Below, in pieces: positions 10,928-54,221 of a stretch of DNA of 64,000 bases. Under the pieces are notes generated by a model. The model ran no database searches. It was not told where the DNA came from and saw only the letters and a program-made list of their open reading frames with translations. Each line of letters begins with the position of its first letter. Position 1 is the stretch's first letter. A program made the translations under genes and the position numbers. The stretch comes from Clostridia bacterium. GTDB lineage: Bacteria > Bacillota > Clostridia > Oscillospirales > CAG-272. The stretch lies in NCBI GenBank assembly GCA_017451545.1, contig JAFTOB010000160.1:1-64000 (forward strand). Direction: 5' to 3'.

Positions 10928-11084
10928 TCAACTTCCGATGCTTCGCATCGGAACGTTGTCGCCATCACCCGCATCTGAAACGCGATCTCTCACGTCTCTA
11001 TATAAAGCAATGCTTGATCAGGGCCATTGCTTATTTTCAAAAACAAAGCAGCCGCTTTTGCGACTGCTTTGCTTTGGTGCGGGA

Positions 11085-11169
11085 AACGGGACTTGAACCC
11101 GTACGGTGAAATCCACACGCCCCTCAAACGTGCGCGTCTGCCAGTTCCGCCACTCCCGCGTGAGCCGCT
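11085..11169 (-). tRNA. tRNA-Leu (anticodon GAG)
   Basis: Folded by hand. Acceptor GCGGGAG, anticodon loop TTGAGGG, long variable arm, T-loop TTCAAGT, CCA encoded. A terminator hairpin with T-run lies downstream (11040-11084). Confidence 0.85.
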
Positions 11170-25461: not shown

Positions 25462-25495
25462 AGACCGCCCATCGGGCGGTCCGCTTTTTATTTAT
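25462..25495. terminator. Bidirectional terminator between pit and the convergent giant gene
   Basis: gaccgcccatcgggcggtc followed by TTTTT, with an A-run on the other side. Confidence 0.6.
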
Positions 25496-31358: not shown

Positions 31359-31385
31359 AATAATCTCCATTTTATTAATAATATA

Positions 31386-31414
31386 ATTATACCACAAAAA
31401 GGGCGCGTAAACAA
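31386..31414 (-). promoter_or_regulatory. Putative dxs promoter
   Basis: TTGTTT-17 nt-(TG)gTATAAT on the minus strand. Confidence 0.35.
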
Positions 31415-31490
31415 TAGGAAAACGTCGATTTTCCAAAAAATTCTATATGATTTTTCGAAAATTTTTCAAAGTTTTTTTCAAAAAAGTGTT

Positions 31491-37088: not shown

Positions 37089-37163
37089 GCCTGCATAGTT
37101 AAATGGATATAATAACCCCCTCCTAAGGGGTAGTTATGGGTTCGATTCCCGTTGCGGGTGCCA
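37089..37163 (+). tRNA. tRNA-Arg (anticodon CCT)
   Basis: Folded by hand. Acceptor GCCTGCA/TGCGGGT with G1-U72 and U4-G69 wobble pairs, U8, D-loop with GG, anticodon stem ACCCC/GGGGT with loop CTCCTAA, 4-nt variable loop, T-loop TTCGATT, discriminator G, CCA encoded. Confidence 0.65.
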
Positions 37164-37394: not shown

Positions 37395-37430
37395 ACGCAA
37401 GCTCCCCGACGCTGTCGGGGAGCTTGTGTT
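37395..37430. terminator. Bidirectional terminator (agctccccgac-gctg-tcggggagct plus a T-run)
   Basis: Lies immediately 3' of the convergent 37431..39218 ORF. Confidence 0.6.
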
Positions 37431-39218
37431 TTAAAAGATATCGTCTATTGCGTCGTCGGAGTCGACGGCGGTGAGGGTCACTTTAAGCGAATAGGTTCCG
37501 GCATTGGAAAGGCTTGAGGTATCAAGCTTTACCGTGTAGGCCACGTTCTCGTGGAGTGTGACCTCGCCCGTACCAACTTCGCTTCCGTCCGCTCTGTAGA
37601 CGGTTGCGGGGGTGTCTCCCTCAAACTTATAATCGCCTGCTACGTCAACCGTCAGCGTGTAGCTAATATAACCGGGGGTGATATCGATACTTCTGACGAT
37701 GATGCTGTTGTCGCCGACAGTCAGGACTCTCTCGATAGCTTTGACAGAGATCTTGAGAGAATAGCTGCCCTGCGCGATGATGCCGCTGAGCTTGACGGTG
37801 TACGTGCCCGCCGCCAGATCGAGCTCGCCGCTGCCGAGATTCTTGCCTGCGGCATCGTAAACAGCCAAGTTAAAGTTTGCACCGTTGAAGACATACGTAT
37901 CCGGAGTATCGACCTTGAAGATATATGAAATGGTTCCCGCAGTGACGTCAATGCTTCTGACGGTGATCGTATTAATGCCAACGTTTAACGTTCTGTTCAT
38001 CTTCTTTACCGAAATGCTCAGCGGATAGCTGCCGGCCTTGGTGATACCGCTGACTTTAACGGTATAAGTTCCCGCCTCAAGGTCGAGCTCGCCGTTTCCG
38101 AGGCTATTACCCAATGCGTCGTAAACAGCGACCGTAAGTCCTGTGCAGGAGAAGATATAGGTCTCGGCGGTGGTTGCCTTGAAGGTGTAAGACAGGGTGC
38201 CGGGAGTCACGTCAATGCTACGGACAAGGATGCTGTTGGAGCCGACCTTCAGGGTTCTGTCGATCTTCTTTACCGAAATGCTGAAGGGATATTCCCCTGC
38301 CTCGGTGATGCCGCTGACCTTGACGGTGTAAGTTCCCGCGGGAAGGTCGAGCTCGCCGCTGCCGAGGCTCTTGCCTGCGGCGTCATACACGAAAAGGTTC
38401 AGACCCGTGCAGGCAAAGACGTAGGTCTCCGCGGTGTCGGCCTTAAAGGTGTAGGTCAGAACGCCGGGTGCGACAACGTCGATCTCGCGGACCTTAACTG
38501 TATTAGAGCCGACCTTCAGGGTTCTGTCCATTTCCTTTACCGAAATATTCAGAGTATAGTTCCCTGCCTCGGTAACGTTTCCGAGGATAACGGTGTAAGT
38601 ACCGGCAGGGAGGTCGAGCTCGCCGCTGCCGAGGGCGTTACCGTCGGTGTCATAGACAGCAACCGTCAGGCCGTCTGCGGTGAAAACATAGGTTTCCGCG
38701 GCGGTCGCGGTGAAGGCGCATTTCACGGTTCCGTTTTCGATGTCCTTGACTTCAACGGCAAGAGTATTCTCGCCGACGGTGGCGGTGAAGACGGTCTGCT
38801 TTTCGGACGAAAGCCCGATCCAGATATCGTAAGTACCCGCGACAACTCCGTCGTTTATATCCAGCCTTACGGTATAAATACCGTTAGCAAGATCCATGAC
38901 GTTGCGTCCCTCAAGGGAGCCATCCGAGTTGTAAACGCTTGCGTTGAAGTAATTGCTGAAGAAGGTATACTCGCCTGCGGCGGTTACGGTGAACTGGAAT
39001 TCAACACTTCCGCCTGCGATATTTTCATCGGTCAGGGTAATATCATTGTAGCCGCCCTCAAGGCTCGGAAGCTCGGGAAGCTCCTCGGGAGGGGTATCCG
39101 AGACCTTTGTCAGCACGTACTCGGTTCCCGCGTGAATGAAAACGTCTGCGTTTCCGTTTTCATCGAGAACCAGAACGGCATCGGAGACATAAGTCGCGAC
39201 TCCGTTTATATATATCAC
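37431..39218 (-). pseudogene. C-terminal portion (595 aa) of the giant Ig-like-repeat lipoprotein, separated from 39446..44005 by a frame change
   Basis: Six tandem 90-aa repeats of about 90 aa each, of the same type as in the upstream giant ORF. There is no signal peptide. The GTG start has no RBS. The reading frame stays open upstream to 39497 and encodes protein-like sequence, overlapping the end of the upstream ORF. Confidence 0.5.
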
Positions 39219-39445
39219 CTTTTCTTCGATCTTTTGACCGTCCCTATAAAAAACAACTTTCCCATCGACTATCTCGTACTCAAATTTGCCTATTCTGCCG
39301 TTAGAATCCTCGACAGTGAGCTTGTTCTCGTATATGATGACCTCTACGCTCGTATTAAAATAGCTATTGGTTCCGTTATATTTGCCGATGAGGGAAGGTG
39401 TCTGTGATGGGGGGAGAGGATTATCGGGGTTATCCTCTCCCCCAC

Positions 39446-42400
39446 CTATTCCCCCTCCTGATCCCCGTCTCCTTCGGTAACGGTATATTCGGTACCGTTA
39501 TCGGTAAGGCCGACGAGCTTGCCGTCGGTGACGGTAAGGCCCATACCGGACATTGCGTTGCCTTCATCGTCAACTATGGTTGCAACACCGTCGATAAAGG
39601 TATATGCGTAGGAGTTGGTCATGGGGTCGCCGGTCAGGTGGTGAATAAAAGAAATCGTAACAGTAGTATCGTCGACGACAACGTTCTTCGTATTTCCACC
39701 GGAATCGGTGGCAACGTACGTGCCGGTGATGTCGATATTGGGGAGCTCGGGCTCGTCGCCACCGACGGTAACGACCCAGCCGTCCTCGCCAACCTCAAAC
39801 TTGACGGCGGTGATGACGGGGGCGTTTCCGGTTGCCTCCTCATGCTCCATAGCGGTGAGGTTGAGGATCAACGTACCGTTATTGTTATCCGTAACTGTAT
39901 AGGTGTAGTATGCCTTGCAAATAACGTTCCACTCTTCGTCCATCTCGATATAGCACACGTAATAGACATTCGTGAGCATATCCCGGGAAACTTCGATCGT
40001 AATACCGTTATCAAGCATATTGTAGGAATCAAGGATCCTTCCCCACTCTGCCTCGGTGAGTGCGCCTGCCTCAAAGGTCAAGGTAGCCTCAACGGTGGCG
40101 GGAGTCTCGGAGTAGAAATATACGATATAGGTTTTTCCTGCAACAACGGGAGCGGTTACCGTGGTCTCGCCCTCGGACAGCTCTACCTCTGCAAGAGTGA
40201 CAATAACGGTTCCGTTAACGGTGAGGGTCACGTGACCGGTCTCGGTTGCGGTGAACTCATAGTAGTAAGCGGACCAATCGGATGGGAGATTGGGCTTCAA
40301 GGTTGCGGGGAAGCTTTCGATCTTATCGGGATTATCGTAGGATCCTGCGGGAGCTGCAAACTCAACGGTAATGCTGTAATCACCTGCGGTTGCTGCACTT
40401 ACGGTTACGGTATAGGTGGTATAGCCGTCAAGAAGAGCGCCGTTCTCAACGGTATTTCCATCGGCGTCGGTGATAACAAAGGTCAGACCCTCGCCCTTGA
40501 CGGTGTAGTATCCCCTGTCATAAGTGAAAAGGAATACAACGGTAGATCCGTCGACCTTAACGTCTATGCTTCCGTAATTATCAAGGATCACAGGAGCGCC
40601 CACGGTGAGGGTGTACTCGCCTGCGGTCTCTGCGGTAACGGTTATCTTGTACTGAAGATAGGACTCGAGAGTGTACTCGCCGCCTGCGGGCTCGACAACG
40701 TTGCCTTCGCCGTCAGTGACAACGACGGTCAGGCCTGTACCGGTGAAGGTATACTTGCCGTTATTGTAGGGGGTGTATACGCAATCAATACCCTCTGCGG
40801 GTACGGTAACGGTATTCTCACCATCCTCAAGCACAACGGGTCTTTCGGCAGAGACGTTGACGACGTAGTCGCCTGCGGTCTCAGCACCGATAACCACGGT
40901 GTAAGAGCCCATATATGCGGCTTCAAGGTCAACGGTAACAGCACCGAAGCCCTGAACCATAGGCATACCCCAAGTGTCATAGATCGCAATGGATGCACCG
41001 TTTGCGGTGAAGGTGTAATTTGCGTTCTCGTAAACGTTGAGGTAGGTGGTTGTACCGTTTACGGTATCGGAAACGGTAATAGTATTCTCCCCTTCCTCGA
41101 GGTAAATGTCCTCGGGGATCTCGGGATCGTCGGGATCGTCGGGCTGATCGGATACACCCATAATGACGTAGGTGACCGTCCAGCTTCCCTTTGTTGCCGC
41201 GCTGATATGGAACTTATAGATCTCCCCTGCAGTAAGCTCGACCGCAAAGGTTCCTCCGTTCGGATCGTTGTTGAAGTCAACGTAAGGCATTGAAGAAAAT
41301 TCGGTTTCATATTTTACCGCATCCCAAGCACCGAGGCCTGCAGGCACGGTGAAAATATATTTGCCCGTCACGGTTGCGCTGATCTCAATGTAGTCATCCC
41401 AAGTGTACGTCTCGGTGATAGTTCCGCTCACAGAGCCGTTGCCAATCTCTACAAGCTCCTCGTCCTCTTCTTCCTCGGTGACTCTGGTCATATTCTGAGC
41501 CATGGGCATACCCGAGCAGAGGAAGGTGGGCGTTACGCCGTCGAGAGCCAGGCTGATAATGATATTGGCTTCACTTCCGTCGGCCTTAAGAACGGTAATG
41601 CCGCCCATAAGAGTTCCTGTGTAAGTATAGCTTCCGCTGTATGCTCCGTTATTATTGTCAACTATGGTGAGAGCACCGTTGTTAAACTCAAGAACGAACA
41701 TACCCGACAGAACGTTCCACTTACCGTTGAGCGCGGTCTCGATCTCGGGCTCCTCATCCTCGCCGCCGCTCTGGAGCGTGAGGGTATACTTGTTGCCGTT
41801 GTAATAGAAGAGCGAGGGATTGCCGTCTGCGCCAAGCTCAAGCTTTCCAAAGTACTGAGCCATGGGACCGTTGGGATCAATGGGGCCGTTGGCGTTGCTG
41901 AGAGTCACGACACCGTTATTGACGGTGAAGGTGTATTCGAATGCATACGTGCTGAATTTGAAAAGGACCGTTCCTGCAGCGGGGTTATATTCCAGCGTTC
42001 CGCTGTTTGCAGGGGAGCTTGCTGCGTAAATGTACGAGCCGTCGTCCTCCTTCATATCAGCGGCGGTAAAGGTGATCTCTGCGGGCTCGGTTCCGTTGTA
42101 TACAACGGTGAAGCCGTTTCCGTTTACAGAATAGTTATTCGCAGTGGTTCCGGAAACGTACACCTGTCCCTCGGGATCGGTGACGGTGACACCGTCGACA
42201 GTCCAGGTAATAGCGTAAGTGCAGATGCTTGCGGCACCGCTGGTTCCGAATCCGCTGAGGTGCACTGTGTACTCCTTGCCGGGCTTGAGAGTCACGGTGT
42301 TCTCACCGGGCTTGAAGGTAAGCTCGTAGGATACGGCTTTATAATCGACGCGAACGTTTCCGTCCTTGTCGGCCTTGAGGAGGAAGGCGCACTGGGAGTT

Positions 42401-44005
42401 TGCCTCAACGTAGACCTCCTGAACGGTTGCCCAAGTCTTGCCGCCGTCCACGCTGATCTGCACGCCGTTACCGACGGATATCTCGTAGAAGCTGCCGTTC
42501 TCGGAATTGTTGACAAAGTAGTTGGTGGCACCCGTGGTACTTGCATATCCCGCGTTGCCGCCGAGAGTCTCGTCGTAAAATATCTCCTTGCCGATATTTA
42601 CGACCTTGAGAGTATCCTGCAGGTCGGTCTCAGCGGATGCGCTGGTTCTGACGAAGAACAGGAAGGTCTCGTTTGCCTCAAGAGAGATCATATAGCTGTG
42701 ACCCTGGGGCATCATAAAGGTGTCTTCCCAAGTGCAGATGTTGGAATTCTCGTTTGCAAATTCAAAGAGATAATCGCTGTCCGCAGGAGCGGTGAAGCTG
42801 TATGCGGTATATTTGTTCATATCCACTGTCATTGCCGTGTCGCCGAGATTTACGACTATTCCCTCAAGGGGTTTGATGCTCCAATCGAAGTCAAAGGCTC
42901 CGACCGTAATATCGAGCAGCTTGATCTGAAGAGTGATCTCCTGATTGTCCTCGGTTGCGGTGATGTAGTGGGAGTTCTTAAGTGCATCGTCGATGGTGAT
43001 GTACTCGACTGAGGTGTAGAACTCGTAAAGGCCCTTGGTGGGCAGAGTAAACTTAACGTTTACCACGGTGTTCGAGGGGAACAGATAGCTTCCCTCGGTC
43101 TCGGTAAGCTCAACGGTGTCCTCGATCTTTACTACGTAGTAGAAATATCTGACGGTGGGATCCTCATCGTTGATAAGATCCTCGCTCATGGGGAAGATAC
43201 GGCTCTTGACGGTATACTCACCGGCCTTGTCAACCTCAAATACGTATTCCTTAGCAAAGCTTCCGCCCTCTACGTTGGGACCAAAGTTGATGTCCTCGTG
43301 ATCCGACGAGAAAACAAGGTACTTTCCGGCAGAAGGCAGATCGAGGGTAAGCGTGCCGTAGTAGTACTTCCACGTGGCGTACACGCCGCCGATCTCGCCC
43401 TCCTCATCCTCGAGGATGACCTCGGCATAAGCAACACGGGTGGCCTCAACGGTAACCTCGGTATCGGCAGAAATTTTCGACACGGTGAAGCTCCAGACAA
43501 ACTCGATGCCATCCTCCTCGGGCTCGCCGTCCTGCTCTGCCCCGTTTGCGGTGAGAGCAAATGCGGGTGAACCTGTAACGGTAAAGGTAACGTCCTCTCC
43601 GGGCTTTGCGGTCAGAGTACCTTCAACGGTAAAGCCCTCGGGAGCGGTGACTGTGACCTTGTAGGTCATTCTGTACTCGCAGGTATCGCAAAGTCCGTTG
43701 GCATCGTTATCCGCATGGGGTGCGAGGTCGGAGGTCTGCTCCTTGTGCTCGCAGCTCGCGGCGTGCCAGTGATTATTTTCATCCGTTGTCCAATTATTCT
43801 CAAAAGTATGGGTGTGATCGGGGTCGATGGGTGTTGTCGTTTCGTCCCCGCCGGGTATTGTGGTGGTGTCACCGCCCGGAGTGGTAGTGGTTGAATCGGG
43901 TGCCTTCGTTGTGGAGTCACCTTCTGCCGATCCGTCTCCGCCACAGCCTACCATAAGCAGGGCTACGATAAGAAGCGCAACCAGCAAATAGAAACTTTTC
44001 TTCAT
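39446..44005 (-). CDS. Giant surface lipoprotein (1519 aa) with many tandem beta-sandwich (Ig-like) repeat domains
   Basis: Lipobox LMVGC, a Thr/Pro-rich linker, a His/Cys-rich segment, then repeated roughly 90-100-aa units with motifs like TAGEYTLTV and AGDYVVNV. Confidence 0.8.
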   Translation of the reverse strand: MKKSFYLLVALLIVALLMVGCGGDGSAEGDSTTKAPDSTTTTPGGDTTTIPGGDETTTPIDPDHTHTFENNWTTDENNHWHAASCEHKEQTSDLAPHADNDANGLCDTCEYRMTYKVTVTAPEGFTVEGTLTAKPGEDVTFTVTGSPAFALTANGAEQDGEPEEDGIEFVWSFTVSKISADTEVTVEATRVAYAEVILEDEEGEIGGVYATWKYYYGTLTLDLPSAGKYLVFSSDHEDINFGPNVEGGSFAKEYVFEVDKAGEYTVKSRIFPMSEDLINDEDPTVRYFYYVVKIEDTVELTETEGSYLFPSNTVVNVKFTLPTKGLYEFYTSVEYITIDDALKNSHYITATEDNQEITLQIKLLDITVGAFDFDWSIKPLEGIVVNLGDTAMTVDMNKYTAYSFTAPADSDYLFEFANENSNICTWEDTFMMPQGHSYMISLEANETFLFFVRTSASAETDLQDTLKVVNIGKEIFYDETLGGNAGYASTTGATNYFVNNSENGSFYEISVGNGVQISVDGGKTWATVQEVYVEANSQCAFLLKADKDGNVRVDYKAVSYELTFKPGENTVTLKPGKEYTVHLSGFGTSGAASICTYAITWTVDGVTVTDPEGQVYVSGTTANNYSVNGNGFTVVYNGTEPAEITFTAADMKEDDGSYIYAASSPANSGTLEYNPAAGTVLFKFSTYAFEYTFTVNNGVVTLSNANGPIDPNGPMAQYFGKLELGADGNPSLFYYNGNKYTLTLQSGGEDEEPEIETALNGKWNVLSGMFVLEFNNGALTIVDNNNGAYSGSYTYTGTLMGGITVLKADGSEANIIISLALDGVTPTFLCSGMPMAQNMTRVTEEEEDEELVEIGNGSVSGTITETYTWDDYIEISATVTGKYIFTVPAGLGAWDAVKYETEFSSMPYVDFNNDPNGGTFAVELTAGEIYKFHISAATKGSWTVTYVIMGVSDQPDDPDDPEIPEDIYLEEGENTITVSDTVNGTTTYLNVYENANYTFTANGASIAIYDTWGMPMVQGFGAVTVDLEAAYMGSYTVVIGAETAGDYVVNVSAERPVVLEDGENTVTVPAEGIDCVYTPYNNGKYTFTGTGLTVVVTDGEGNVVEPAGGEYTLESYLQYKITVTAETAGEYTLTVGAPVILDNYGSIDVKVDGSTVVFLFTYDRGYYTVKGEGLTFVITDADGNTVENGALLDGYTTYTVTVSAATAGDYSITVEFAAPAGSYDNPDKIESFPATLKPNLPSDWSAYYYEFTATETGHVTLTVNGTVIVTLAEVELSEGETTVTAPVVAGKTYIVYFYSETPATVEATLTFEAGALTEAEWGRILDSYNMLDNGITIEVSRDMLTNVYYVCYIEMDEEWNVICKAYYTYTVTDNNNGTLILNLTAMEHEEATGNAPVITAVKFEVGEDGWVVTVGGDEPELPNIDITGTYVATDSGGNTKNVVVDDTTVTISFIHHLTGDPMTNSYAYTFIDGVATIVDDEGNAMSGMGLTVTDGKLVGLTDNGTEYTVTEGDGDQEGE

Positions 44006-44042
44006 AAAAGTCTCCTCCTTGAAAGATTATGAACCTAAAAGA

Positions 44043-45800
44043 TCATTCAGTGTAATATGCGCAGGCGAACAGCCACTGATCGTCCTGCATTGCGTCGACG
44101 TCGATAACGTCGTTCTCCTCGACCCAGCCCGCGCCGTCATTGAAATAGCGCTGTGCCTCGCTGAGTCTTTGCAAAAAGACGCGAAGCTCCTCGGTCAGAG
44201 GAAAATATCCGTCCCGATTGGCGAAATCGGCATAGCCGGGACCGCCGATAAGCTCCTTGCGGCAGGGCGTACAATCGCTGATACAGCCCTCGCAATCGGG
44301 TGGGCAGGCCAGACCGTATTTCCCGCCGCCGTGGCAGGGGCATTTATAGCTACAATAATACGGAGGCATATCTACGCTTCCGCTCCAGGTAGCAAGATCG
44401 TCGTAGCCCTCTAGGAAATGCTTGTAATTGTGGTCAAGGTATTCCCCGTTCTCCTCCACGCGGATGGTCAGGCTCTTATTGCCCGGATCCTCGATATGGG
44501 TCAGAGAAAGCTGCAGGAATCTGCAGGGAGTGGTAATGGCGGCGTAGACCGTGGGGCCGTAGCCGTCGGTTTCCGCGTATTTTTCCTCATCGTAGAGATG
44601 ATAGAAGCCGTCCTCGGGGTTCAGCTTGAACATTGAGCCGTCAAATATGTTCTTTCCTCCCACGCGGATCTCGGGGTAGGTCAGCCTTCCCTCTTCGTTG
44701 TAAAGATTTTTCAGATACAGGCGTATATGATAGTATTCGTCTTCGCCCATGACCTTGAAAAGTCTCTCGTTGGGGTTTGTGGGATCCTCGTTTTCGTAAT
44801 TTTTCAGATTCTCGTAAGTTGTCCGAAGCGGGGGATCGTTCGGTGCCGCGTAGCGGGAAAGTGCGGCCGAGTAATCCTCCCAGCTCATTGCAAGCAGCTT
44901 ATCGAGCTCTCGGTTTATTGTAGCATAAAGCTCGGTGGGGATCTCCATTGCCTTTTCGGTTCGCGGTCTGACGTACGAGCCGTTTCTCGAAATGGCAAAA
45001 TCCACATTGACGGGAGAAAACTCCGTCGCTTTGGTCTCGACGTGGACGGCGAAGGTATAAACGTTTCCGATCATATCGGCGTCGACGTTGATCTCGTAAC
45101 GGAAATTCTTCGTGTAGCCCTTGCTTGCGCCGCCGTCATCCAGCGTGCGGTCGAAGAACTTGCTTGCGAAGGTTCCGTTGTAAAGATCGGCCTTGGGATT
45201 GATCTCGCCTGCGGTGATATCCACCCAGGATTCGACCACATAGGTTCCCTCCTCCGAGGGTACGAACTGATAATACACTACCGTATTAGCCTTTTTGATA
45301 TCGGCGCGGAAGACGCCGATGTCCTCAAGCTCAAAGCAACGGTAAAGCGATTTGCCCGTTCCCTTCGTGGGCTCGGTAATATCGTAAAGATCAATGACCA
45401 CGTTCCTCTCGTCGGCGGTGGCCACGTAGATATTGGGGTTATAGATCAGGCCGTCGGGCACCGAGGAGAGAGTTACGTCATAGTTTCCGTCAAGATCGCC
45501 GACGGTAGCTATTCCCTGCTCGTTGAACTCGGCGTTGTAGAAGCTGTATCCGTCTGTCCAATGGGCGAAGACCTTATCCTTAGGAATATATGGGTCGCCG
45601 TTATATCGGAGCGACACGGTGTAGGCGTTTTCGTCGGGCACGCTGTCACTCGGCGGGGTTGCCGTGGTGCTCTCATCGGGAGCGGTGGTACCGTTCGGCT
45701 GTTTTATCGCCTCTGTATACTCACCGCAGCCGATCATTGCGCAGACCAGAAGGAGCAAAACGGTGGAGACAAATATTTTTTTCATCTTTCGGTTTTTCAC
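44043..45800 (-). CDS. Lipoprotein of unknown function with a Cys-rich C-terminal region
   Basis: Lipobox MIGCG. CPCHGGGKYGLACPPDCEGCISDCTPC cluster. Confidence 0.7.
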   Translation of the reverse strand: MKNRKMKKIFVSTVLLLLVCAMIGCGEYTEAIKQPNGTTAPDESTTATPPSDSVPDENAYTVSLRYNGDPYIPKDKVFAHWTDGYSFYNAEFNEQGIATVGDLDGNYDVTLSSVPDGLIYNPNIYVATADERNVVIDLYDITEPTKGTGKSLYRCFELEDIGVFRADIKKANTVVYYQFVPSEEGTYVVESWVDITAGEINPKADLYNGTFASKFFDRTLDDGGASKGYTKNFRYEINVDADMIGNVYTFAVHVETKATEFSPVNVDFAISRNGSYVRPRTEKAMEIPTELYATINRELDKLLAMSWEDYSAALSRYAAPNDPPLRTTYENLKNYENEDPTNPNERLFKVMGEDEYYHIRLYLKNLYNEEGRLTYPEIRVGGKNIFDGSMFKLNPEDGFYHLYDEEKYAETDGYGPTVYAAITTPCRFLQLSLTHIEDPGNKSLTIRVEENGEYLDHNYKHFLEGYDDLATWSGSVDMPPYYCSYKCPCHGGGKYGLACPPDCEGCISDCTPCRKELIGGPGYADFANRDGYFPLTEELRVFLQRLSEAQRYFNDGAGWVEENDVIDVDAMQDDQWLFACAYYTE

Positions 45801-45815
45801 GCCGTTTTACCTCCT

Positions 45816-48800
45816 TTATGACGTTTTGGTTTTTACAAACAGGCTCTTTATATCGACCCATTTGAGTTTTCTTATGATAATATCGATGACGTAGAGTGCT
45901 ACGGCGATGATCAGAAGCGGGACCGTGTAGTTCACCTTATAGGTCGAGATCTCCTTTTCGTCGTTCTCTATCTTGGGGACGCCGTTCTCGGTGATGGTAC
46001 CGTTGCCTCTTATTGCCTGGTTGAGATCAGAGGCGCTGAAGGTTGCAAAGCTGTCATACTCGGGGGAGTAGGACACGTTGAAGTAGGTATCCGACACGTA
46101 TTCGTGATCATCGTAAGAATAAGTGAAGGTTATCTTATATTTACCGAGATCGGGAGTCGCAAATTCGTAGTAGTAACCCGTGGAGTTAAAGAGGAGCTGA
46201 TCGGCAATAGTTTCGCCGTTCGGCAGAGTGATCTCCATATGCATCGTGGCGTAAGGATTGAGAACTGCGGGGATCACCTCGATGAAGGAGGACTCACCGT
46301 CATACTCAACGCTGACAGAATAAGGATCGTTGATCTTCTCCGACGGAGTGTTGACCTCAAGCACGTTCTCGAGGAAGTCCTGACCCGTGCTGTCCACCCA
46401 ATCGCGGGCCCATTCGCCCGAGATCGAGCTTGTGAAGGTCGAAACCTTACCGTTTCCGTAGCTCCAATAGACGTATATGGGGGGCTTGGCCACGCCCTCG
46501 CCCGTTCTGGTGTACTCGGTGGTGAGAACGGTGGTGGCGCTCGCCTTGGCGCTTGAATAAACGTAACCGTAAAGGTCGGGAAGGCGTTTGATGCCCTCAA
46601 GCACGTCGTCATGCTCCTTGCTGATATTGACGGGCGACTTTTCTTCAATGACAGTTTCCTTGAGCTGATCCATCATATCTGCCGACATTTCATACTGTAC
46701 CCATGCGTTTTCGTCATCGGTGCTCAACACGTATGTTCCGACGGCGGGCGAGACGAACCAATATTCTATTCCGCCCTTATCGATATCCTCTTTGGATACG
46801 GTTATTTTATTGTCGCCGTATGCCAGATAATTCTTCGTGGGGTTTGTGGGATCGCCTGCCGAATCCACCTGCTCGTCACCGATATAGGTGATGCTAAGCT
46901 CGATCTCGTCGGCATCCCCGTTGAACGTGGAGATATAAAGCTTGAGGATCTTTCCCTTATAAAGCTCAAGATAAACACTCTCGCCGCCACGCAGACCTGC
47001 CATGGTGTTCATATCGGTGAGGTTGCCGTCCTCCTTGATCTCATAGAACTTTCCGTTACCGTACTTGGCTATGGATTTCATCATGGACAGTCCCTCGTCG
47101 GTATTATCCGCAGGGGGACAAGGGTAAATGGCCGAAGTGTTGATCCCCTCGGCGCTCATATCCTTGACGACGTCGATGGCGTTGGGGGTCTCCTCGCCAA
47201 AGGCGCGACCGTCGGAGATCAGATAGACCTCGCGGCTGTCGAAGGGCTGATCCTTCATAAGCTCTGCGGCCTGGAAAAGTGCCGAGCCGAGGAAGGTTCC
47301 CTGAGTTGGGCGAATGGCGTTGATTCGATCCTCGATCTCCTGTCTGTAATCCCCTACCCTTACGGGCTTGTAGACCACCTTGACGTCTCCGGAGAAGGAA
47401 ATGACCGAGACGTAATCGTCTGCGTTCAGCGTGCCGAGGAACTCCACCGCCGCTTTTTTCAGAGTTATAAGTCTGGATGCCTGATCCATACTGAGCGAGC
47501 TGTCAAGCACTATGGCGTAAAGCTTCTCCTTCTGATCCGAGTTGCCGAATTTTACGGGAAGCATATCCTCAAGCTGCTTCAGCACCTCGTCGGTCTTATT
47601 CTGGATCTTGAGATCTCCCACCGTTACAAGGCTCTTGCCGAAGAGCGAGACCACCTTATCCACGTTACCGATGAATGCGGTGTAGTTATCAAGCTCGCGG
47701 ACGTCCTGATTCGAGATAATGATCTCATCGTACTCGCAAAGCGCCTCGACGGTTACGGGCAGCTTATCGAGCAGGCTTTCTTCATCGTATTTTCCCTCGG
47801 GCAGCTTGACCTTGGGATCGCTGATAAATGCATCGATCTTGGCGTTTGCGCCGTAGATTCTGTGTATCGCATCAAGATCCGAGGCCAGCGGTGTCACCAA
47901 CAGAACGCTGATATCGCCCGAAACACTTTGAGTGAAGCTATAGCTGTTGTTGTGGGGAGACACGTCATCCTTCGAGCTGATCTTGATCTCGTAATCAAAA
48001 TCGCCCTCGTCCCCCGTTTCGAGCTCCACGTTGACCACGTTGTAGCCACGCGAGAGCTGAACCGCCTGAGTGGACACGTTGACCGAATTTCGGTAGACCG
48101 AAAGGATAGTCTGCGCGTCGTAGGTGCTCTGAAGAAGCACGTTTGCCGTGGTTTCGTGGTTGAGGTAGGTGGATTTAGTGAAGTCCACGCCTGTTATCTG
48201 CACCTCAAGATCGTCTTCCTTGAGGTTGTTGTCCAGATAAATGGTATCAATATAAATATTCTGTGCGCGGAGGTTTTCGATGGAGGCTATAAGCTCCTTC
48301 GTGTCCTCGCTGTTCGTCTGTTTTCCGTCGGTTATAAGAACGATCCTCTTTATAACGTTGTCCTTAAAAAGACCCGCAGCGTAATCGAGAGCGGGGGCGA
48401 TATGAGTGGCTCCGCTGTCGACCTTTGCGTTCTTAACACTCTCAAGCTCCTCGCCCATTTCGGTAACGAGCTCATAATCCGCGCCGAAGCAGATGAGACC
48501 CACCTTTGAGTTCATGGGAAGATTTTCCTTCACCAGGGCATCTATATATTGATCAACCGTATCGAGATTCCGATTTGCGGAATAGGACACGTCGGCCACG
48601 ATATAAACGTTGGTCTCGGTTATGACCGTGGTGACCACGGTTCCCGCCAGCGCGAAGACGATGGCAACGATTATGACGAAATGGAGTATAAAGGATGCGA
48701 TGACATGGCCGTTTCTGTTATCCTTTCTTATAGCGATAAGGAAAGGGATAAGAACCGCTAAAACGAGGGGTATTGCGACGAGAAACAGATAGGGATTATC

Positions 48801-48818
48801 GAAGCTGATATTTTTCAT
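45816..48818 (-). CDS. Membrane protein with two von Willebrand factor A domains (BatB-like)
   Basis: N-terminal TM helices. Two VWA units (around ADVSYS...ITDG and around LDSSLSM...ISDG). C-terminal TM helix. The start is chosen at the internal M (MKNISFDNPYLF) and overlaps the upstream gene. Confidence 0.7.
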   Translation of the reverse strand: MKNISFDNPYLFLVAIPLVLAVLIPFLIAIRKDNRNGHVIASFILHFVIIVAIVFALAGTVVTTVITETNVYIVADVSYSANRNLDTVDQYIDALVKENLPMNSKVGLICFGADYELVTEMGEELESVKNAKVDSGATHIAPALDYAAGLFKDNVIKRIVLITDGKQTNSEDTKELIASIENLRAQNIYIDTIYLDNNLKEDDLEVQITGVDFTKSTYLNHETTANVLLQSTYDAQTILSVYRNSVNVSTQAVQLSRGYNVVNVELETGDEGDFDYEIKISSKDDVSPHNNSYSFTQSVSGDISVLLVTPLASDLDAIHRIYGANAKIDAFISDPKVKLPEGKYDEESLLDKLPVTVEALCEYDEIIISNQDVRELDNYTAFIGNVDKVVSLFGKSLVTVGDLKIQNKTDEVLKQLEDMLPVKFGNSDQKEKLYAIVLDSSLSMDQASRLITLKKAAVEFLGTLNADDYVSVISFSGDVKVVYKPVRVGDYRQEIEDRINAIRPTQGTFLGSALFQAAELMKDQPFDSREVYLISDGRAFGEETPNAIDVVKDMSAEGINTSAIYPCPPADNTDEGLSMMKSIAKYGNGKFYEIKEDGNLTDMNTMAGLRGGESVYLELYKGKILKLYISTFNGDADEIELSITYIGDEQVDSAGDPTNPTKNYLAYGDNKITVSKEDIDKGGIEYWFVSPAVGTYVLSTDDENAWVQYEMSADMMDQLKETVIEEKSPVNISKEHDDVLEGIKRLPDLYGYVYSSAKASATTVLTTEYTRTGEGVAKPPIYVYWSYGNGKVSTFTSSISGEWARDWVDSTGQDFLENVLEVNTPSEKINDPYSVSVEYDGESSFIEVIPAVLNPYATMHMEITLPNGETIADQLLFNSTGYYYEFATPDLGKYKITFTYSYDDHEYVSDTYFNVSYSPEYDSFATFSASDLNQAIRGNGTITENGVPKIENDEKEISTYKVNYTVPLLIIAVALYVIDIIIRKLKWVDIKSLFVKTKTS

Positions 48819-50646
48819 AGCAATACACCGCCCAATCTGCCGCAAAAATCACCGCCAAACAGATAAATACGATGAGCAGACTGTCATACGTACCGTCAAA
48901 TCCGCCGGGCTCGGCCGTTCCCGTGAGGCTGAAATCTTCAGCAGAGGCCTGCGGCAGGCGCTCGCTCTCGGGAAGCTCTGAATAAATTTTGAAAACTCTC
49001 GGGTTATCCGACACCGTAACGGTAACGGTGTAGGTTCCCACCTCGGTAAGCGTGTAATCGCTGATTGCGCCCGCAGTATCAAGATAGGATATCTTGCCGC
49101 CGGGGCTGTCAACTCTGATGCTGTCGCAGTTTGCGATAACGTTCACGCTCAGCTCGTCTCCGCAGTAGTAGGAGGACTTTTCAATGACCTCGGGGAAAGA
49201 ATATTCCATAAAGTTCTTAACAAGGGCAATGAAATCCACCAGCACGGGGAGGTTTGAATCCTGCAGGCTGAATGCGAATACCACTTCTCTGTTTCCGTAG
49301 GTATTGGTGCCCGTAAAGACCACGGGGTTACCCTGATAGGTGAACAGAGGGGTGAACTTTCGGTAAAGACCGCACTTCACGAACCGTGTGATATATATAT
49401 CCTTACCGCCCACTCCCGCAGTCAGCTTTCTGACCACCGAGGAACTGTCCTTCGACATGGTGACGGTGCTCGGATCCTCAAGAGTTACGTCTCCCTGCAC
49501 GCTGAAGCCCGAATTGTCCACGCTCGCAGAGGGATTGATGATCCATACGGCGCCATCCCGTGGCAGCTCCGAAGGATCGTAGGAATCGAAAATATAAAGT
49601 CCGTAGCCGCTCTGACCCGTATATTCATCGGGTAGCATTACGTCTATGTTGGAGTATCCCGTGGCCGACAGCGCGCTTCTTATAAAGAAGGGGTTGGGGC
49701 TGACCGCTAAGATCTTGTAGGAATCGTCGCCGCTCTTTACGTTGTACACGATGACCTCGTTATCAAGAGCGAGAGAATCGTCGGATTCCAATACGACCTT
49801 TATGGACTTATAGCTCTTGCACTGGCAAGCAAGCTCAAAGGGAGTGCTCTCCCCTGCCTTTACCTCGACGGTTTCGACGGCGTTCGCCTCGGCGGCGTCA
49901 TCCACGTAGAGCTTGACCGTAAAGGTGGCATCCGCGAGGTAGGAGATCGCATTGCCGCTGACATTCAGCCTTCCCGCCGAAAGCACGGGGATGATACTGT
50001 TGATGGCTGCGTTCTTCTCCTTGCCCGCCACGTTGATGACCTCAACGTTGCCGTGTGCGGCATATGCGGTATCGGTGACAAGGTAGGTCAGGATCGATGG
50101 GCTTTCGTTGAAATACTTCTGCGCCTCGCTGATCGCCTCTGCCGTATCGGTCTCGCAATGGGAGGGCTCTATCTCATCCAGCAGAACGAGCACCTTTTCC
50201 TTGTCGGTCTCGCCCTCGAAGACCACTCTCGTGCCGTCGCCGTAATAAACGAGCGAGAATCTGCTTCCGTCCACGGCGTCGCCGACAAGCTCGGATATTT
50301 TCTCCTTGCCCATCTCAAATCGGGTCTTCCCTTCCTCGGAGACCATATTCATACTGCCCGTGCCGTCAAGCACGAAGCAATATTCATTGGCCGCGTTGGG
50401 GATGGTGACGATGGGATGAGCTATGGCCAGCGAGATAAAGAGAACTGCCAGAAGCTGAAGGATGAGGCTGATAAGTCCCGTCATTCGGCTGATGGGGTTC
50501 TTTCTTTTGAGAAATTTTTCGCTGAGCGTCCACAGATAGGTGGATGCCACAAGCTGCTCCGTATATTTGCTTTTTATTATGTATATGATTATCAGGATCG
50601 GAATTCCGATAAGTCCCAACAATCCGAGTGGGTATAAGAAGGTCAC
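48796..50646 (-). CDS. BatA-like membrane protein with a VWA domain
   Basis: BatA N-terminal TM motif (MTFLYPLGLLGLIGIPILIIIY), VWA (LDGTGSM ... TDTA) and a C-terminal TM anchor. ATGA overlap with DUF58. Confidence 0.75.
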   Translation of the reverse strand: MTFLYPLGLLGLIGIPILIIIYIIKSKYTEQLVASTYLWTLSEKFLKRKNPISRMTGLISLILQLLAVLFISLAIAHPIVTIPNAANEYCFVLDGTGSMNMVSEEGKTRFEMGKEKISELVGDAVDGSRFSLVYYGDGTRVVFEGETDKEKVLVLLDEIEPSHCETDTAEAISEAQKYFNESPSILTYLVTDTAYAAHGNVEVINVAGKEKNAAINSIIPVLSAGRLNVSGNAISYLADATFTVKLYVDDAAEANAVETVEVKAGESTPFELACQCKSYKSIKVVLESDDSLALDNEVIVYNVKSGDDSYKILAVSPNPFFIRSALSATGYSNIDVMLPDEYTGQSGYGLYIFDSYDPSELPRDGAVWIINPSASVDNSGFSVQGDVTLEDPSTVTMSKDSSSVVRKLTAGVGGKDIYITRFVKCGLYRKFTPLFTYQGNPVVFTGTNTYGNREVVFAFSLQDSNLPVLVDFIALVKNFMEYSFPEVIEKSSYYCGDELSVNVIANCDSIRVDSPGGKISYLDTAGAISDYTLTEVGTYTVTVTVSDNPRVFKIYSELPESERLPQASAEDFSLTGTAEPGGFDGTYDSLLIVFICLAVIFAADWAVYCYEKYQLR

Positions 50647-51527
50647 TTCAATACCTCCATATCGGTCAGTTTTCCGAAGAAGATCTCGGCCATGGAGTCC
50701 TCCGCGTTTGTCAGCATATAAGCTGCGCCGCGGGCTTCACAATAATTTTTGATCCTGTCAACGGTGTACTGCAGCGCATCCTTATAGGCGCGCACGATCT
50801 CGCGATCGATCTTTTTTCTGTATGACTTTCGCGTATTTTCCGAATCGAAAAGGTGCATCTTTCCGCGAAGCTGGGGGTTCATCTCTTCCCTCGACAGCAC
50901 CTGAATGCAAAGAATATCCCTGCGCTTATCGGCCAGGTGGTCTATGGCGTCCTCGTAGTTGTTGTCGGTGAGGAAGTCGGAGATTATGACCGACATACCG
51001 TCGCCGTGACCCACGCGGGACTGAAGAATGGCGTCCGAAATAAAGCTGTCACCGTCAAACTCGATCTCGTTGAGCTTGCCGATGGAGCCGATATACGCCT
51101 CTTTGCCCACTATCCCGTTCAGCACGTCGATGACCTGACTGTCGCGGATGATAAAGATGGAAACCTTTTCCATTTCACAGATCGAGATATACGCCAACGT
51201 AGCGGCCAAGCGCAAGGCTTGCTCTGCCTTCTGTCCTCTGCCGTAATCCATGGAGCGGCTGGCGTCGATATAGATCCTCGTGTGCATCTGACGCTCGTCG
51301 AGATAAAGCTTTTCGTAAAGCTTATCGAAGCGCGCGTATGCGTTCCAGTCGATCTTCGTCACGTCATCGCCCGGCATATAGTCGCGGTAATCCACAAATT
51401 CGCAGGACGAGCCGTAGGTCTTACTCTTACGGTTGCCCCCGAACATACCGGCTATATTGTTTTTGAGCAGGGTCTGCAGAGTTTCGATCTGCTGCAAAAG
51501 CTCCTCATTTACCGTAAATTTTGCCAT
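50643..51527 (-). CDS. DUF58 domain protein (MoxR partner)
   Basis: Conserved DUF58 core (EFVDYRDYMPGDDVTKIDWNAYAR). Canonical position after MoxR. Confidence 0.85.
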   Translation of the reverse strand: MAKFTVNEELLQQIETLQTLLKNNIAGMFGGNRKSKTYGSSCEFVDYRDYMPGDDVTKIDWNAYARFDKLYEKLYLDERQMHTRIYIDASRSMDYGRGQKAEQALRLAATLAYISICEMEKVSIFIIRDSQVIDVLNGIVGKEAYIGSIGKLNEIEFDGDSFISDAILQSRVGHGDGMSVIISDFLTDNNYEDAIDHLADKRRDILCIQVLSREEMNPQLRGKMHLFDSENTRKSYRKKIDREIVRAYKDALQYTVDRIKNYCEARGAAYMLTNAEDSMAEIFFGKLTDMEVLK

Positions 51528-51533
51528 ATCAAC

Positions 51534-52523
51534 TTACTTTGAGAGCTTTTTGTTTTCTCTTACGAGCATACCGATAACGTCATCGGCGGTCAATCTCTCG
51601 TTAACTGCGGTGTAGTTTACCTTGATTCTGTGTCTGAGAACGGGGCAAGCCAGCGCGTCGATGTCGGCGTAGGAGACGTTGTAGTTGCCGTTTACAAGGG
51701 CGCGAACCTTGGCGCAGGTGATGAGGGCCTGAGCCGCACGGGGGGATGCGCCGTACTTTATGTACTTCTTTGCGGTGACAGAGGTATCGTCAAGCTCGGG
51801 GTGAGTGTTGGAGACGAGATTGATGGCGTAGTTCAGTACGTCACCAATTACCGGGACGGTGGCCGCAAGGGCTCTCATTTCCATGATCTCCTCGCCGTTG
51901 ACCGAAGCCTCGGCGGTCTCCTCCATGGTGATCTGGGTCATTCTGACGATATCTGCAAGCTCGGCCTTGTTCGGGAACTTCATAAGAAGCTTGAAGACGA
52001 AGCGGTCCATCTGAGCCTCGGGCAGCGGGTAGGTTCCGTCCTGCTCCACGGGGTTCTCGGTTGCGAGCACGAAGAAGGGCTCGTCGATCTTATATGTCTC
52101 GCCTGCCACGGTAACCTTGTGCTCCTGCATGACCTCAAGCATTGCGGACTGGGTCTTGGGGGTTGCACGGTTGATCTCGTCGGCAAGGACGAGGTTGGCG
52201 AAGATGGGGCCCTTGCGGAAGCTGGTGTTGAGCTTTCCGTTATCGTCCTTTTCGACGATATTGGTACCCGTAACGTCGGAAGGCATAAGGTCGGGGGTGA
52301 ACTGAATACGCGAGAAGGGGAGCTGGAGGGTCTTGGCCAGCGAACGGACCAGACGGGTCTTACCTACTCCGGGAACACCCTCAAGCAGAACGTTTCCGCC
52401 TGCGATGATCGCGATAATAACGTTATCGATTATTTCCTGCTGACCGACAACGTCGCGTGCCAGCTGCTCCTTGATTGCGGCGATCTTCTGGCTGAATGCC
52501 GCTACTCTTTCCATGTTTTCCAT
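51534..52523 (-). CDS. MoxR-family AAA+ ATPase
   Basis: Walker A GVPGVGKT, Walker B LADEINR, and the MoxR-specific insert. Confidence 0.9.
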   Translation of the reverse strand: MENMERVAAFSQKIAAIKEQLARDVVGQQEIIDNVIIAIIAGGNVLLEGVPGVGKTRLVRSLAKTLQLPFSRIQFTPDLMPSDVTGTNIVEKDDNGKLNTSFRKGPIFANLVLADEINRATPKTQSAMLEVMQEHKVTVAGETYKIDEPFFVLATENPVEQDGTYPLPEAQMDRFVFKLLMKFPNKAELADIVRMTQITMEETAEASVNGEEIMEMRALAATVPVIGDVLNYAINLVSNTHPELDDTSVTAKKYIKYGASPRAAQALITCAKVRALVNGNYNVSYADIDALACPVLRHRIKVNYTAVNERLTADDVIGMLVRENKKLSK

Positions 52524-52540
52524 AATATATCCTTCCTTTA

Positions 52541-54004
52541 TTATTCTTTATCTTCTGTTCCGCTGAAGAGCACGTCGAAATACGCGTCCAGCAGATCCTT
52601 AAATTCATCGGAGATCTGACCGCTGAGGACATCCTCCAGATATTTTCCGTGGTATGCTCCGAGGGACTCGCCGTAAAGGACGGTCTCCTTCTTCTCGGGA
52701 TCGTAAATATAGGACTCGTCGCTTCCGTATATGATGTTTCCGGTTCCTATACCGCCGTCAGAGACCACCTCGTCCTCATCGTCCTCGGGCTTGACGTTCT
52801 CGTCATTCTTGTCGCCTCCCACATTACCGTCGGAGGGCAGATTTGCGTTGAGATCGGGCAGCTCATCGGCCTTGATGCCGAAGAGCTCGGTGAGCTTTGC
52901 TATGACCTTATCCCTCATTTCAAGGTTGGTCTTCTGGTAGGACAGCGCGTCCACCAGATCGTCGCAGGCCGTGGCAAATGCGTTGTCGGTCTGCAGTCCG
53001 TCATTGCTCGAGTCGCCGTCGCTTCCCACAAGTCTCAGCGAGTCGGCAAAGTTATACAGCGCGATGTTGAGATATATCTCGTTGTCGGTCATCGCGCCCT
53101 CAAGAGCCAGCTCGATTCCCGCGGCGAAGGCTGTGGCAAGATCGGCCACGTCGCTCACCATAAAATTACTTACGTAAAGCACGTCCATTTTGTCGCGCAC
53201 CGACAAAGGATCGAGCAGCTCGATGATCTTTCCGAGCTTCTGCATCGAATCGTCCTCGCTCTCCAGCATCTTGCGGCTGATGGCAAGGTAAGTATTGGCA
53301 TTGTCGGAGATCAGGTCAACGTCCACGATGGCGGCTATAACCGTCTCCTTCATTTCGCTCTCGGTCTCCACCACCTTGGTCAGCGCGTAGAGCAGATCCT
53401 CAAGGGTATCGACCGTGCTGTCCTTGGCCTCCTGCTCCATTTCGGATTCCCTGACCTCACGGATCAGATCCTCAAGAGCGACCCTTTGATATTCCGAAAT
53501 TGCCCACGGGATCTCGATCTCTTCGTTTGAATCGTCGAGTGCCTCTGCCTTACCGGGGATGACGAAGGCCGTGACCAGCATTGCGGCCGCAAGCACGAAG
53601 GCAACAGTGATCGCCACGATTCCCCGCAGCCCGACGCCTCTCGTGGTAGCCGCGCTCAGGCGGTTGTCAGCATCCACTCTTTGAAGAGCGATCATAGGGC
53701 CGTTATGCTGCTTATAAGCCACCATCGTCTGTGCTCTTTCGCCGAAATTCAGGGCGCGGTCGATCTTTTTCGCCGCCCGCTTTTCGCTCGGCATAAGCAC
53801 GAGGACTACGATTCCCGCAACGGCCACGGCGGGCGCAACTGATGCGATCAGCATTATTATTTTATCAATTGTCAAGATCTCAAATTTTGAAAGAGTCGTA
53901 AGCACCGCCGCGATGACGCACCCGACGGCTACGCCGAGCAGCGATCCTCTGATCCACGCTCCGACGCACATTTTTCGTTTGAATTTTTTAAATCCTTCTC
54001 CCAT
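52541..54004 (-). CDS. Membrane protein, unknown function; first gene of the MoxR operon
   Basis: Three TM helices in the N-terminal third, then an acidic soluble region. Confidence 0.55.
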   Translation of the reverse strand: MGEGFKKFKRKMCVGAWIRGSLLGVAVGCVIAAVLTTLSKFEILTIDKIIMLIASVAPAVAVAGIVVLVLMPSEKRAAKKIDRALNFGERAQTMVAYKQHNGPMIALQRVDADNRLSAATTRGVGLRGIVAITVAFVLAAAMLVTAFVIPGKAEALDDSNEEIEIPWAISEYQRVALEDLIREVRESEMEQEAKDSTVDTLEDLLYALTKVVETESEMKETVIAAIVDVDLISDNANTYLAISRKMLESEDDSMQKLGKIIELLDPLSVRDKMDVLYVSNFMVSDVADLATAFAAGIELALEGAMTDNEIYLNIALYNFADSLRLVGSDGDSSNDGLQTDNAFATACDDLVDALSYQKTNLEMRDKVIAKLTELFGIKADELPDLNANLPSDGNVGGDKNDENVKPEDDEDEVVSDGGIGTGNIIYGSDESYIYDPEKKETVLYGESLGAYHGKYLEDVLSGQISDEFKDLLDAYFDVLFSGTEDKE

Positions 54005-54188
54005 ATTCAGTTCCTTTCTTTGGGATTTGGGTAACAGCTTAAATCAAGTTTTCCGTGCCTTTCTTCACCCTTTGACAAAACGGCACAATACGGACATTAT
54101 AATTAGAATTATTATATCAAAAAATCGCCTTTTTGTCAACAGTTTATATATATAAAGTAGGCTTTATGGAAAAAGTTAACATATAGAA

Positions 54189-54221
54189 AAGCCTCCCGAT
54201 CAGTTCGGGAGGCTGTTTTGG
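54189..54221. terminator. Hairpin overlapping the pnuC stop codon (gcctcccgatcagttcgggaggc plus a T-run)
   Basis: Perfect 9-bp stem. The T-run is on the plus side and an A-run is on the other side. Confidence 0.45.

Follow-up and report, generated by a model that had tools for sequence, protein, structure and literature searches.

The window analysed here is a 64,000-nucleotide stretch of DNA from a Clostridia bacterium (contig JAFTOB010000160.1 of assembly GCA_017451545.1), in which a group of minus-strand genes between positions 37431 and 54004 joins a module of a MoxR ATPase, a DUF58 protein and von Willebrand factor A (VWA) membrane proteins to genes for large lipoproteins. An initial annotation placed eight co-directional genes here, three of them encoding very large lipoproteins, and the open reading frame (ORF) listing of the window does contain eight minus-strand ORFs, all in one direction and at those positions. 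We conclude that the operon consists of seven genes, encoding a membrane protein of no known family (g1), MoxR (g2), DUF58 (g3), a BatA-type VWA protein (g4), a double-VWA protein (g5), lipoprotein A (g6) and a large lipoprotein B (g7). The eighth ORF (g8) is treated below together with g7.

The first gene, g1 (52541-54004), encodes a 487-aa protein which, as annotated, is a membrane protein: it has three predicted transmembrane (TM) segments, a basic cytoplasmic loop of ~58 aa and an acidic C-terminal part of ~340 aa that is predicted to lie outside. No match to g1 was found in Pfam, NCBIfam or a PDB profile search. The domain calls for the next four genes were borne out by profile searches. 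The g2 product (51534-52523) is a MoxR-type AAA+ ATPase that matches AAA_3 (PF07726) at 5.6e-62 (207.9 bits, against a cutoff of 27) together with AAA_lid_2, with the bpMoxR profile as a secondary match at 3.3e-15. Six nucleotides after it lies g3 (50643-51527; the start given by a public gene caller is 51497, for a product of 284 aa), which encodes a VWA-like DUF58 protein (PF01882, 2.9e-27). The 616-aa product of g4 (48796-50646) combines a BatA domain (PF07584, 2.4e-11) with VWA_2 (2.7e-12), and falls slightly under the cutoff for TIGR02226; TM segments at residues 6-24 and 58-76 form an N-terminal double-TM domain, and there is a C-terminal TM anchor. The g5 product (45816-48818 if translated from an ATG, 1000 aa, or 45816-48845 from a TTG, 1009 aa) contains two VWA stretches, a weak GATase1-like match, two N-terminal TM segments and one at the C terminus. 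The first motif of the metal ion-dependent adhesion site (MIDAS; DxSxS/DxTxS) is intact in all four VWA-type domains: DASRS at residue 88 of g3, DGTGS at residue 94 of g4, and, numbered on the 1009-aa ORF starting at TTG 48845, DVSYS at residue 85 (VWA1) and DSSLS at residue 448 (VWA2) of g5.

Membrane topology was predicted from hydropathy and flanking charges (the positive-inside rule). Both g4 and g5 are predicted to have the N terminus outside, followed by a TM segment, a basic loop inside, a second TM segment, the bulk of the protein outside, a third TM segment and the C terminus inside. MoxR and DUF58 should be cytoplasmic, since neither has a real TM segment; the one weak hydropathy peak in MoxR coincides with its P-loop region. 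For BB0173, a BatA-like protein of Borrelia, the measured topology puts the VWA domain in the periplasm (PMC5700661). The positive-inside rule, together with that experiment, leads us to infer that the VWA domains of g4 and g5 lie on the outer face of the membrane, that the acidic domain of g1 lies there as well, and that both lipoproteins are tethered on the same side.

The putative transcription unit is bounded by consensus matches, which are not proof of function. A promoter-like site on the minus strand (54111-54139), with TTGACA and TATAAT separated by 17 nt and an extended TG, lies 107 nt 5' of the g1 ATG; it matches the consensus at 12 of 12 positions and is the sole perfect sigma-70-type match between 36800 and 54800. 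At the other end, 5 nt past the last stop codon, an intrinsic-terminator-like hairpin (37398-37426, minus strand) with a 13-bp stem containing 9 G-C pairs is the strongest terminator-like site of the region. A bidirectional hairpin at 54190-54214 closes pnuC, the upstream gene. Scanning of the region revealed no minus-strand terminator of comparable strength inside the g1-g8 unit, and a search for a separate promoter or terminator between the VWA genes and the lipoprotein genes likewise found none. The promoter-like and terminator-like sites would thus fit a single transcription unit. The neighbouring genes had been described as separated by 37 nt or less, or overlapping. This holds for the six successive junctions from g1 to g7, which measure 17, 6, -4, -23, 15 and 37 nt (the 23-nt overlap of g4 and g5 being counted from ATG 48818), but not for the last one, where 227 nt lie between the stop codon of g7 and the first possible start codon of g8 (GTG 39218).

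The reading frame of the large lipoprotein gene

The 595-aa product of g8 (37431-39218, minus strand) had been taken for a further repeat protein with a gene of its own. However, GTG 39218 has no Shine-Dalgarno sequence, whereas g1, g2, g4, g6 and g7 have one, and the 595-aa product lacks a signal peptide. Relative to g7, g8 lies in the -1 frame; its frame is open upstream of the GTG and past the TAG of g7, reading ...GGIGGGEDNPDNPLPPSQTPSLIGKYNGTNSYF...EEKVIYINGVATY in a manner that resembles ordinary coding sequence. The frames of g7 (39446-44005, 1519 aa) and g8 overlap at a run of five G within an acidic, glycine-containing linker (39441-39462, minus strand; cag gag ggg gaa TAG gtg ggg ga). 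From this site the -1 frame reads on as GGIGGGEDNPDNPLPPSQTPSLIGKYNG..., which extends g8 to 37431-39445 and makes it the C-terminal ~670 aa of g7. No canonical -1 slippery heptamer is present at the site, where we found the run of five G and nothing further of this kind.

A close relative strain from a different sample (locus L032), with pnuC and rplU flanking the cassette as in the window, carries a single uninterrupted ORF of 1765 aa where the window has g7 and g8. Residues 1-955 of this ORF are 78% identical to g7 residues 1-950, residues 1008-1097 are 66% identical to g7 residues 1424-1513, and residues 1112-1765 are 84% identical to the extended g8. The linker of the relative is in one frame (TEYTVSEEDEPPADPPLPPTTESNIVGKYTG), and that of the window is 29 nt longer. 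Since the one 1765-aa ORF covers both parts, we count seven genes rather than eight and two lipoprotein genes rather than three; on the sequence, the seventh gene is a frameshifted gene of ~2190 aa in full. A separate g8 gene starting at GTG 39218 was rejected on the same comparison, together with the open upstream frame and the lack of a Shine-Dalgarno sequence and a signal peptide.

The frameshift is probably real in the source population, because a second assembly (run SRR12529366, probably from the same sample) gives an identical sequence. The window sequence is also contained in an 86-kb metagenome scaffold (ENA ERZ28654584, XIEF21-1_SAMN15829954 scaffold_629). The contig of another close relative (L028) stops short of the g7/g8 junction and has no bearing on the frameshift. 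The source strain would make either a truncated form of 1519 aa or, through rare -1 slippage on the five-G run, the full form of ~2190 aa.

Conservation of the cassette and its lipoprotein families

To ask of the related loci what the initial annotation had named as a check, that is, whether the same order of module and lipoproteins recurs in relatives, we collected the genomic contexts of three divergent g6 homologues, one homologue at 70% identity and 19 loci from a metagenome scan with the family alignment, and searched all fetched loci by tblastn with the window proteins. All 20 distinct loci with room upstream have the double-VWA gene as the immediate 5' neighbour of the g6 homologue, and the full order g1-MoxR-DUF58-BatA-VWA-double-VWA-g6 is present in all seven loci with enough upstream DNA, each of which is headed by g1. 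A large ORF follows g6 in 17 of 17 loci with room downstream; where complete it encodes ~820-1520 aa, and most are g7-related. A simple lipobox pattern was detected in 18 of 20 proteins that follow g6 in related loci. We also carried out the reverse test: three loci chosen through g5 homologues, regardless of g6, all show the seven-gene order. The junction between g5 and g6 is at most 14 nt or overlapping in six other loci with called gene coordinates. Sequence identities to the window proteins across the other loci are 23-35% for g1, 70-78% for MoxR, 56-73% for DUF58, 43-51% for g4, 38-51% for g5 and 27-44% for g6. The flanks of the cassette vary by locus and include, for example, Fur and rubrerythrin, an energy-coupling factor (ECF) transporter, leucine-rich repeat (LRR) proteins, a sigma factor and galT. 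Because gene order is kept in divergent loci with unrelated flanks, the cassette behaves, at the level of gene order, as an inherited unit in uncultured gut Clostridia. The synteny that the initial annotation called for is therefore present in relatives, and the operonic link of the MoxR/DUF58/VWA module to the lipoproteins, as drawn there, is supported as real and conserved.

Between the window and the close relative strain, identity is 96-99% for MoxR and DUF58, 90-94% for g4, g5 and g6, 85% for g1 and 78-84% for g7/g8. The fastest evolution would thus be in the parts predicted to face outward, as expected for exposed proteins. Several related cassettes have an extra gene after the large lipoprotein, and the window has none. 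In four loci it encodes a lipobox protein of ~310-350 aa (L006, 14888-15931; L017, 4905-5846; L026, 14642-15622; L027, 3319-4251), three of the four being members of one family; in two others the extra protein has a weak CarboxypepD_reg match (L029, 16382-17410; L031, 17057-18403).

Both g6 and g7 are classed as lipoproteins by their lipobox signals, and lipidation is predicted. The g6 gene (44043-45800, minus strand) encodes, as first described, a 585-aa Cys-rich lipoprotein; its signal ends ...AMIGC, with the lipobox cysteine at Cys25, a residue that is invariant in 41 of 41 aligned homologues. The protein contains 13 Cys, and 10 of them fall within ~45 residues in a Cys-rich insert that is absent from several family members (P0056, P0033, P0113 and P0120). 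We modelled the whole protein with AlphaFold (AF2), at a predicted local distance difference test score (pLDDT) of 87.5. Three domains can be recognised in the model: a CnaB/transthyretin-like sandwich, a collagen-binding-domain-like sandwich and a C-terminal domain of ~300 aa that carries the Cys-rich insert, the first two being predicted to resemble pilin/CnaB or transthyretin-like sandwiches. Modelled by itself, the C-terminal domain reached a pLDDT of 93.8 and a predicted template modelling score (pTM) of 0.91, and it had no match among solved structures. Most of the invariant positions of g6 fall in the last 300 residues (Y400, D555, G556, G558, W576, L577 and C580), and at least 90% of aligned sequences share H401; the C-terminal invariant motif has the consensus QWLFACGYY and reads QWLFACAYY in the window.

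No Pfam family scored above threshold for g6, which NCBI annotates as a hypothetical protein. A word-indexed search yielded 123 homologues, none with a Pfam domain, and in an exhaustive profile search the family comprised at least 363 cluster representatives at E ≤ 1e-30, rising to 923 at E ≤ 1e-3. In a scan of genome contigs with g6, the match was confined to the signal peptide. Across loci, the length of g6 family members ranges from ~470 to ~660 aa.

The second lipoprotein had been described as an Ig-repeat lipoprotein of 1519 aa. The lipoprotein part of this description stands: the g7 signal ends ...LMVGC, with the lipobox cysteine at Cys21. The term 'Ig-repeat' does not, as g7 (1519 aa) has no Pfam family above threshold and no sequence relative in PDB. 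In a homologue search with g7, seven of the matches listed reached the E-value threshold, and one of these was the cluster of the query itself; that the g7-like proteins are homologous was established by tblastn and blastp on the fetched loci. Residues ~64-840 are conserved across cassette loci. This region begins with a single copy, at residues 64-109 (window 43678-43815, minus strand; HTHTFENNWTTDENNHWHAASCEHKEQTSDLAPHADNDANGLCDTC), of a 46-aa His/Cys motif of the form HxHxF..W..D..HW..C.[CH]...H.D.D..G.CD.C, for which there is no Pfam match. Many g7-like large lipoproteins have between one and seven copies of the motif, counted with a loose pattern, at their N termini, among them those of L006, L010, L014, L016, L018, L019, L025 and P0122-P0126. 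Judged by its pattern of residues, the motif is probably a small metal-binding module.

The g8 part of the large lipoprotein consists of beta-sandwich-type repeats of ~88 aa, encoded in part by a 264-nt tandem repeat at 37990-38634. It resembles many beta-sandwich families, mostly below the score that Pfam requires, and no stretch reaches significance alone; in comparisons with the large lipoproteins of the fetched loci, it matches only the repeat region of g7 itself. Compared with the close relative strain (L032, 17680-17837), g7 has ~470 extra residues of the same repeat type (residues 951-1423; window 41157-39449), which indicates that repeat modules may be gained and lost quickly between strains in the large lipoprotein. 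The g5 protein, for its part, is ~130 aa longer than its ~870-aa homologues, and the best local alignments among the matches listed cover ~60% of it. Its extra stretch, at residues ~620-720, contains a 'GIEYWFVSPAVGTYVLSTDD' module that by eye is like the sandwich modules of g6, g7 and g8, and suggests possible module exchange between g5 and the lipoproteins.

Relation to known MoxR systems

The cassette is a Gram-positive-type variant of the Bat-like envelope systems, which belong to the MoxR-proper subfamily. It has the features by which such systems are recognised: an AAA_3 MoxR, an adjacent DUF58 protein, a BatA domain with VWA, and a second VWA membrane protein. With the Bat operon (Bacteroides aerotolerance; bb0170-bb0176 of Borrelia; bat of Leptospira) it shares the AAA_3 MoxR, DUF58 and a BatA-type protein with a double-TM domain and VWA, a further VWA membrane protein, the organisation as one co-directional cluster, and VWA domains that face away from the cytoplasm, in the window by prediction. 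The differences are also clear. The second VWA protein of the window carries two VWA domains, unlike BatB. The window cassette starts with a three-TM protein and ends with two lipoprotein families, none of which has a Pfam model. No match to the BatC/BatE TPR, SH3 or BatD was found in the eight ORFs or in the Pfam lists for the cassette genes of related loci. Moreover, Bat operons are found in Bacteroidota and Spirochaetota, whereas the hosts of the window cassette are uncultured Clostridia (Bacillota).

It had been stated that an operonic link between such a module and giant surface lipoproteins is not a described arrangement. As a general claim this does not hold: the idea of MoxR-DUF58 operons joined to exported or surface proteins is not new, because the PFNA and ripAB-moxR1 operons have already been described. 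For the Clostridia cassette itself the statement stands, in that full-text searches of the literature found no paper describing it. In Bifidobacterium, the PFNA cluster has the order pkb2-fn3-aaa_atp(MoxR)-duf58-tgm, and a chaperone role of MoxR for the FN3 surface protein has been suggested (PMC8430577). Common to PFNA and the window is a MoxR and DUF58 pair in an operon with a large secreted beta-sandwich surface protein, of the FN3 type in PFNA. Scans of the window cassette, however, did not find Ser/Thr kinase, FN3 and transglutaminase domains, so that of the five core genes by which PFNA is defined it has only MoxR and DUF58; PFNA, in turn, is without the three VWA-bearing membrane domains of the window. 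The FN3 protein of PFNA is encoded upstream, whereas the surface proteins of the window are lipoproteins encoded downstream.

In mycobacteria, ripAB adjoins moxR1-DUF58-VWA, and MoxR1 is reported to be needed for RipA export (PMC12067865, citing Bhuwan et al. 2016). This neighbourhood resembles that of the window in placing MoxR, DUF58 and a VWA membrane protein beside genes of exported envelope proteins. The mycobacterial clients are NlpC/P60 peptidases exported by the twin-arginine translocation (Tat) pathway and encoded upstream, whereas the window has Sec-type lipoproteins with binding-type sandwiches and no peptidase domain, encoded downstream. In a further group of systems (RavA-ViaA, CbbQ-CbbO, NorQ-NorD and CoxD-CoxE), an AAA+ MoxR protein and a VWA/MIDAS adaptor engage a dedicated client complex. 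There the clients are enzymes of the cytoplasm or the membrane, and the VWA adaptor is a cytoplasmic protein; the window, by comparison, has three predicted extracytoplasmic VWA domains and lipoproteins as candidate clients.

Candidate function and alternative explanations

We put at about one half the probability that the cassette is a seven-gene Bat-like envelope operon in which VWA ectodomains dock the two lipoproteins while a cytoplasmic MoxR-DUF58 pair remodels the membrane part. Both lipoproteins would be docked and organised as a surface complex, probably an adhesin-like or ligand-capturing one, by the VWA ectodomains of g4 and g5, which bear MIDAS motifs, and by the ectodomain of g1. 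A MoxR hexamer and DUF58, its VWA-like adaptor, would spend ATP to assemble or remodel the membrane-embedded part, acting by way of the loops and tails that g1, g4 and g5 have in the cytoplasm. Several points weigh against this proposal. The membrane topology is a prediction; the bounds of the transcription unit rest on consensus matches at the sequence level; and the His/Cys-rich motifs in both lipoproteins could mean a metal or redox role, not binding. In addition, we know of no Bat-like system with an explained route from the cytoplasmic ATPase to the extracytoplasmic domains. MoxR is unlikely to fold the lipoproteins directly once they are exported, because both carry Sec-type signals with no twin arginine and because MoxR and DUF58 are predicted to be cytoplasmic. 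Docking on extracytoplasmic VWA domains would fit the predicted topology better.

A more far-reaching form of the docking proposal, which we hold to be improbable, would make the cassette a self-contained surface machine specific to Clostridia. The work of MoxR-DUF58 would cross the membrane through the three-TM VWA proteins and switch or assemble an external MIDAS-lipoprotein complex, as a bacterial equivalent of integrin-style inside-out control. The C-terminal domain of g6 would then have a new fold, and g6 and g7 would be the first clients to be defined for a Bat-like MoxR system.

Among the alternatives, a role in redox or metal handling has to be taken seriously, although we consider it unlikely. 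The cassette would then be a Bat-like system for aerotolerance or envelope stress, the His/Cys lipoproteins would be redox or metal components on the outer face of a strict anaerobe, and the MoxR module would load them or maintain their metal or thiol state. The MoxR family has a known tie to metal-centre assembly, and both the 10 Cys within ~45 residues of the g6 insert and the one to seven copies of the 46-aa His/Cys motif in g7-like proteins favour such a role. The insert is, however, missing from the four g6 family members named above, and so is dispensable to the family. At two loci the neighbouring genes point the same way: the cassette adjoins a rubrerythrin and a Fur-family regulator in L004 (216-1284) and a flavodiiron/rubredoxin-type protein in L006 (1-709). 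These neighbours hint, weakly, at a connection with oxygen tolerance, but oxidative-stress neighbours are absent at most loci. The Bacteroides Bat operon and its Leptospira homologues have been proposed to act in aerotolerance or oxidative defence, yet according to the same report no specific function of the spirochaete Bat homologues has been shown experimentally (PMC3557215).

It is doubtful that MoxR-DUF58 serves as a cytoplasmic pre-export chaperone for both lipoproteins, as is reported of MoxR1 for RipA in Mycobacterium tuberculosis. The cassette has the same kind of neighbourhood as mycobacterial ripAB, which adjoins moxR1-DUF58-VWA, and MoxR1 is reported to be required for RipA transport (PMC12067865). 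RipA, however, is exported by Tat (PMC12067865), a pathway for folded proteins, whereas the signals of g6 (MKNRKMKKIFVS...) and g7 (MKKSFYLL...) are of the Sec type with no twin arginine, and the two proteins would cross the membrane unfolded. A pre-export role would also leave unexplained the three outward-facing VWA domains of the membrane proteins.

The lipoprotein genes might instead be passengers that share the transcript of the Bat-like module without a functional link to it. The large lipoprotein does vary strongly in length and repeats, and surface-protein genes often lie in variable regions. Synteny largely refutes this explanation, which we regard as very unlikely: g6 follows the double-VWA gene in all 20 loci and in all three loci of the reverse test, among which there is no g5-type module without g6, and the junctions are at most 15 nt or overlapping, with flanks that are unrelated. 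Hardly credible is a MoxR-vWA conflict or anti-phage system of the kind reportedly described by Kaur et al. 2020, which would account for the bpMoxR match of g2, since AAA_3 matches g2 far better, family scans revealed no beta-propeller of the MoxR-vWA-beta-propeller ternary system and no effector domain in the cassette, a PADLOC scan gave marginal P-loop matches and nothing meaningful beyond them, and the cassette sits among housekeeping genes.

MoxR-proper/Bat-like operons are widespread and, to our knowledge, their targets are essentially unknown. The strict and tight linkage of the module to two lipoprotein families on the VWA side of the membrane provides concrete candidate clients. It also defines three uncharacterised families, namely g1, g6, and g7 with its recurrent 46-aa His/Cys motif. 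These proteins may matter for the surface biology of their hosts, Clostridia that are abundant in gut and rumen and are known from metagenomes only.

Elsewhere in the window, a 1329-aa ORF (25492-29481, minus strand) shares 4 nt with the end of dxs (29478-31436). It has a DUF1542 repeat at residues 786-857 (1.9e-8), and near its C terminus, at residues 1249-1316, a domain of the ribosomal L15/L27A type that exceeds the gathering score (3.6e-13). It is odd for so large a protein to end in a ribosomal-protein domain, which could reflect a fusion or an over-extended ORF. Three tRNA genes were identified, at 10815-10898 and 11078-11159 on the minus strand and at 37089-37160 on the plus strand; the last lies ~240 nt beyond the operon terminator, on the strand opposite to the cassette.

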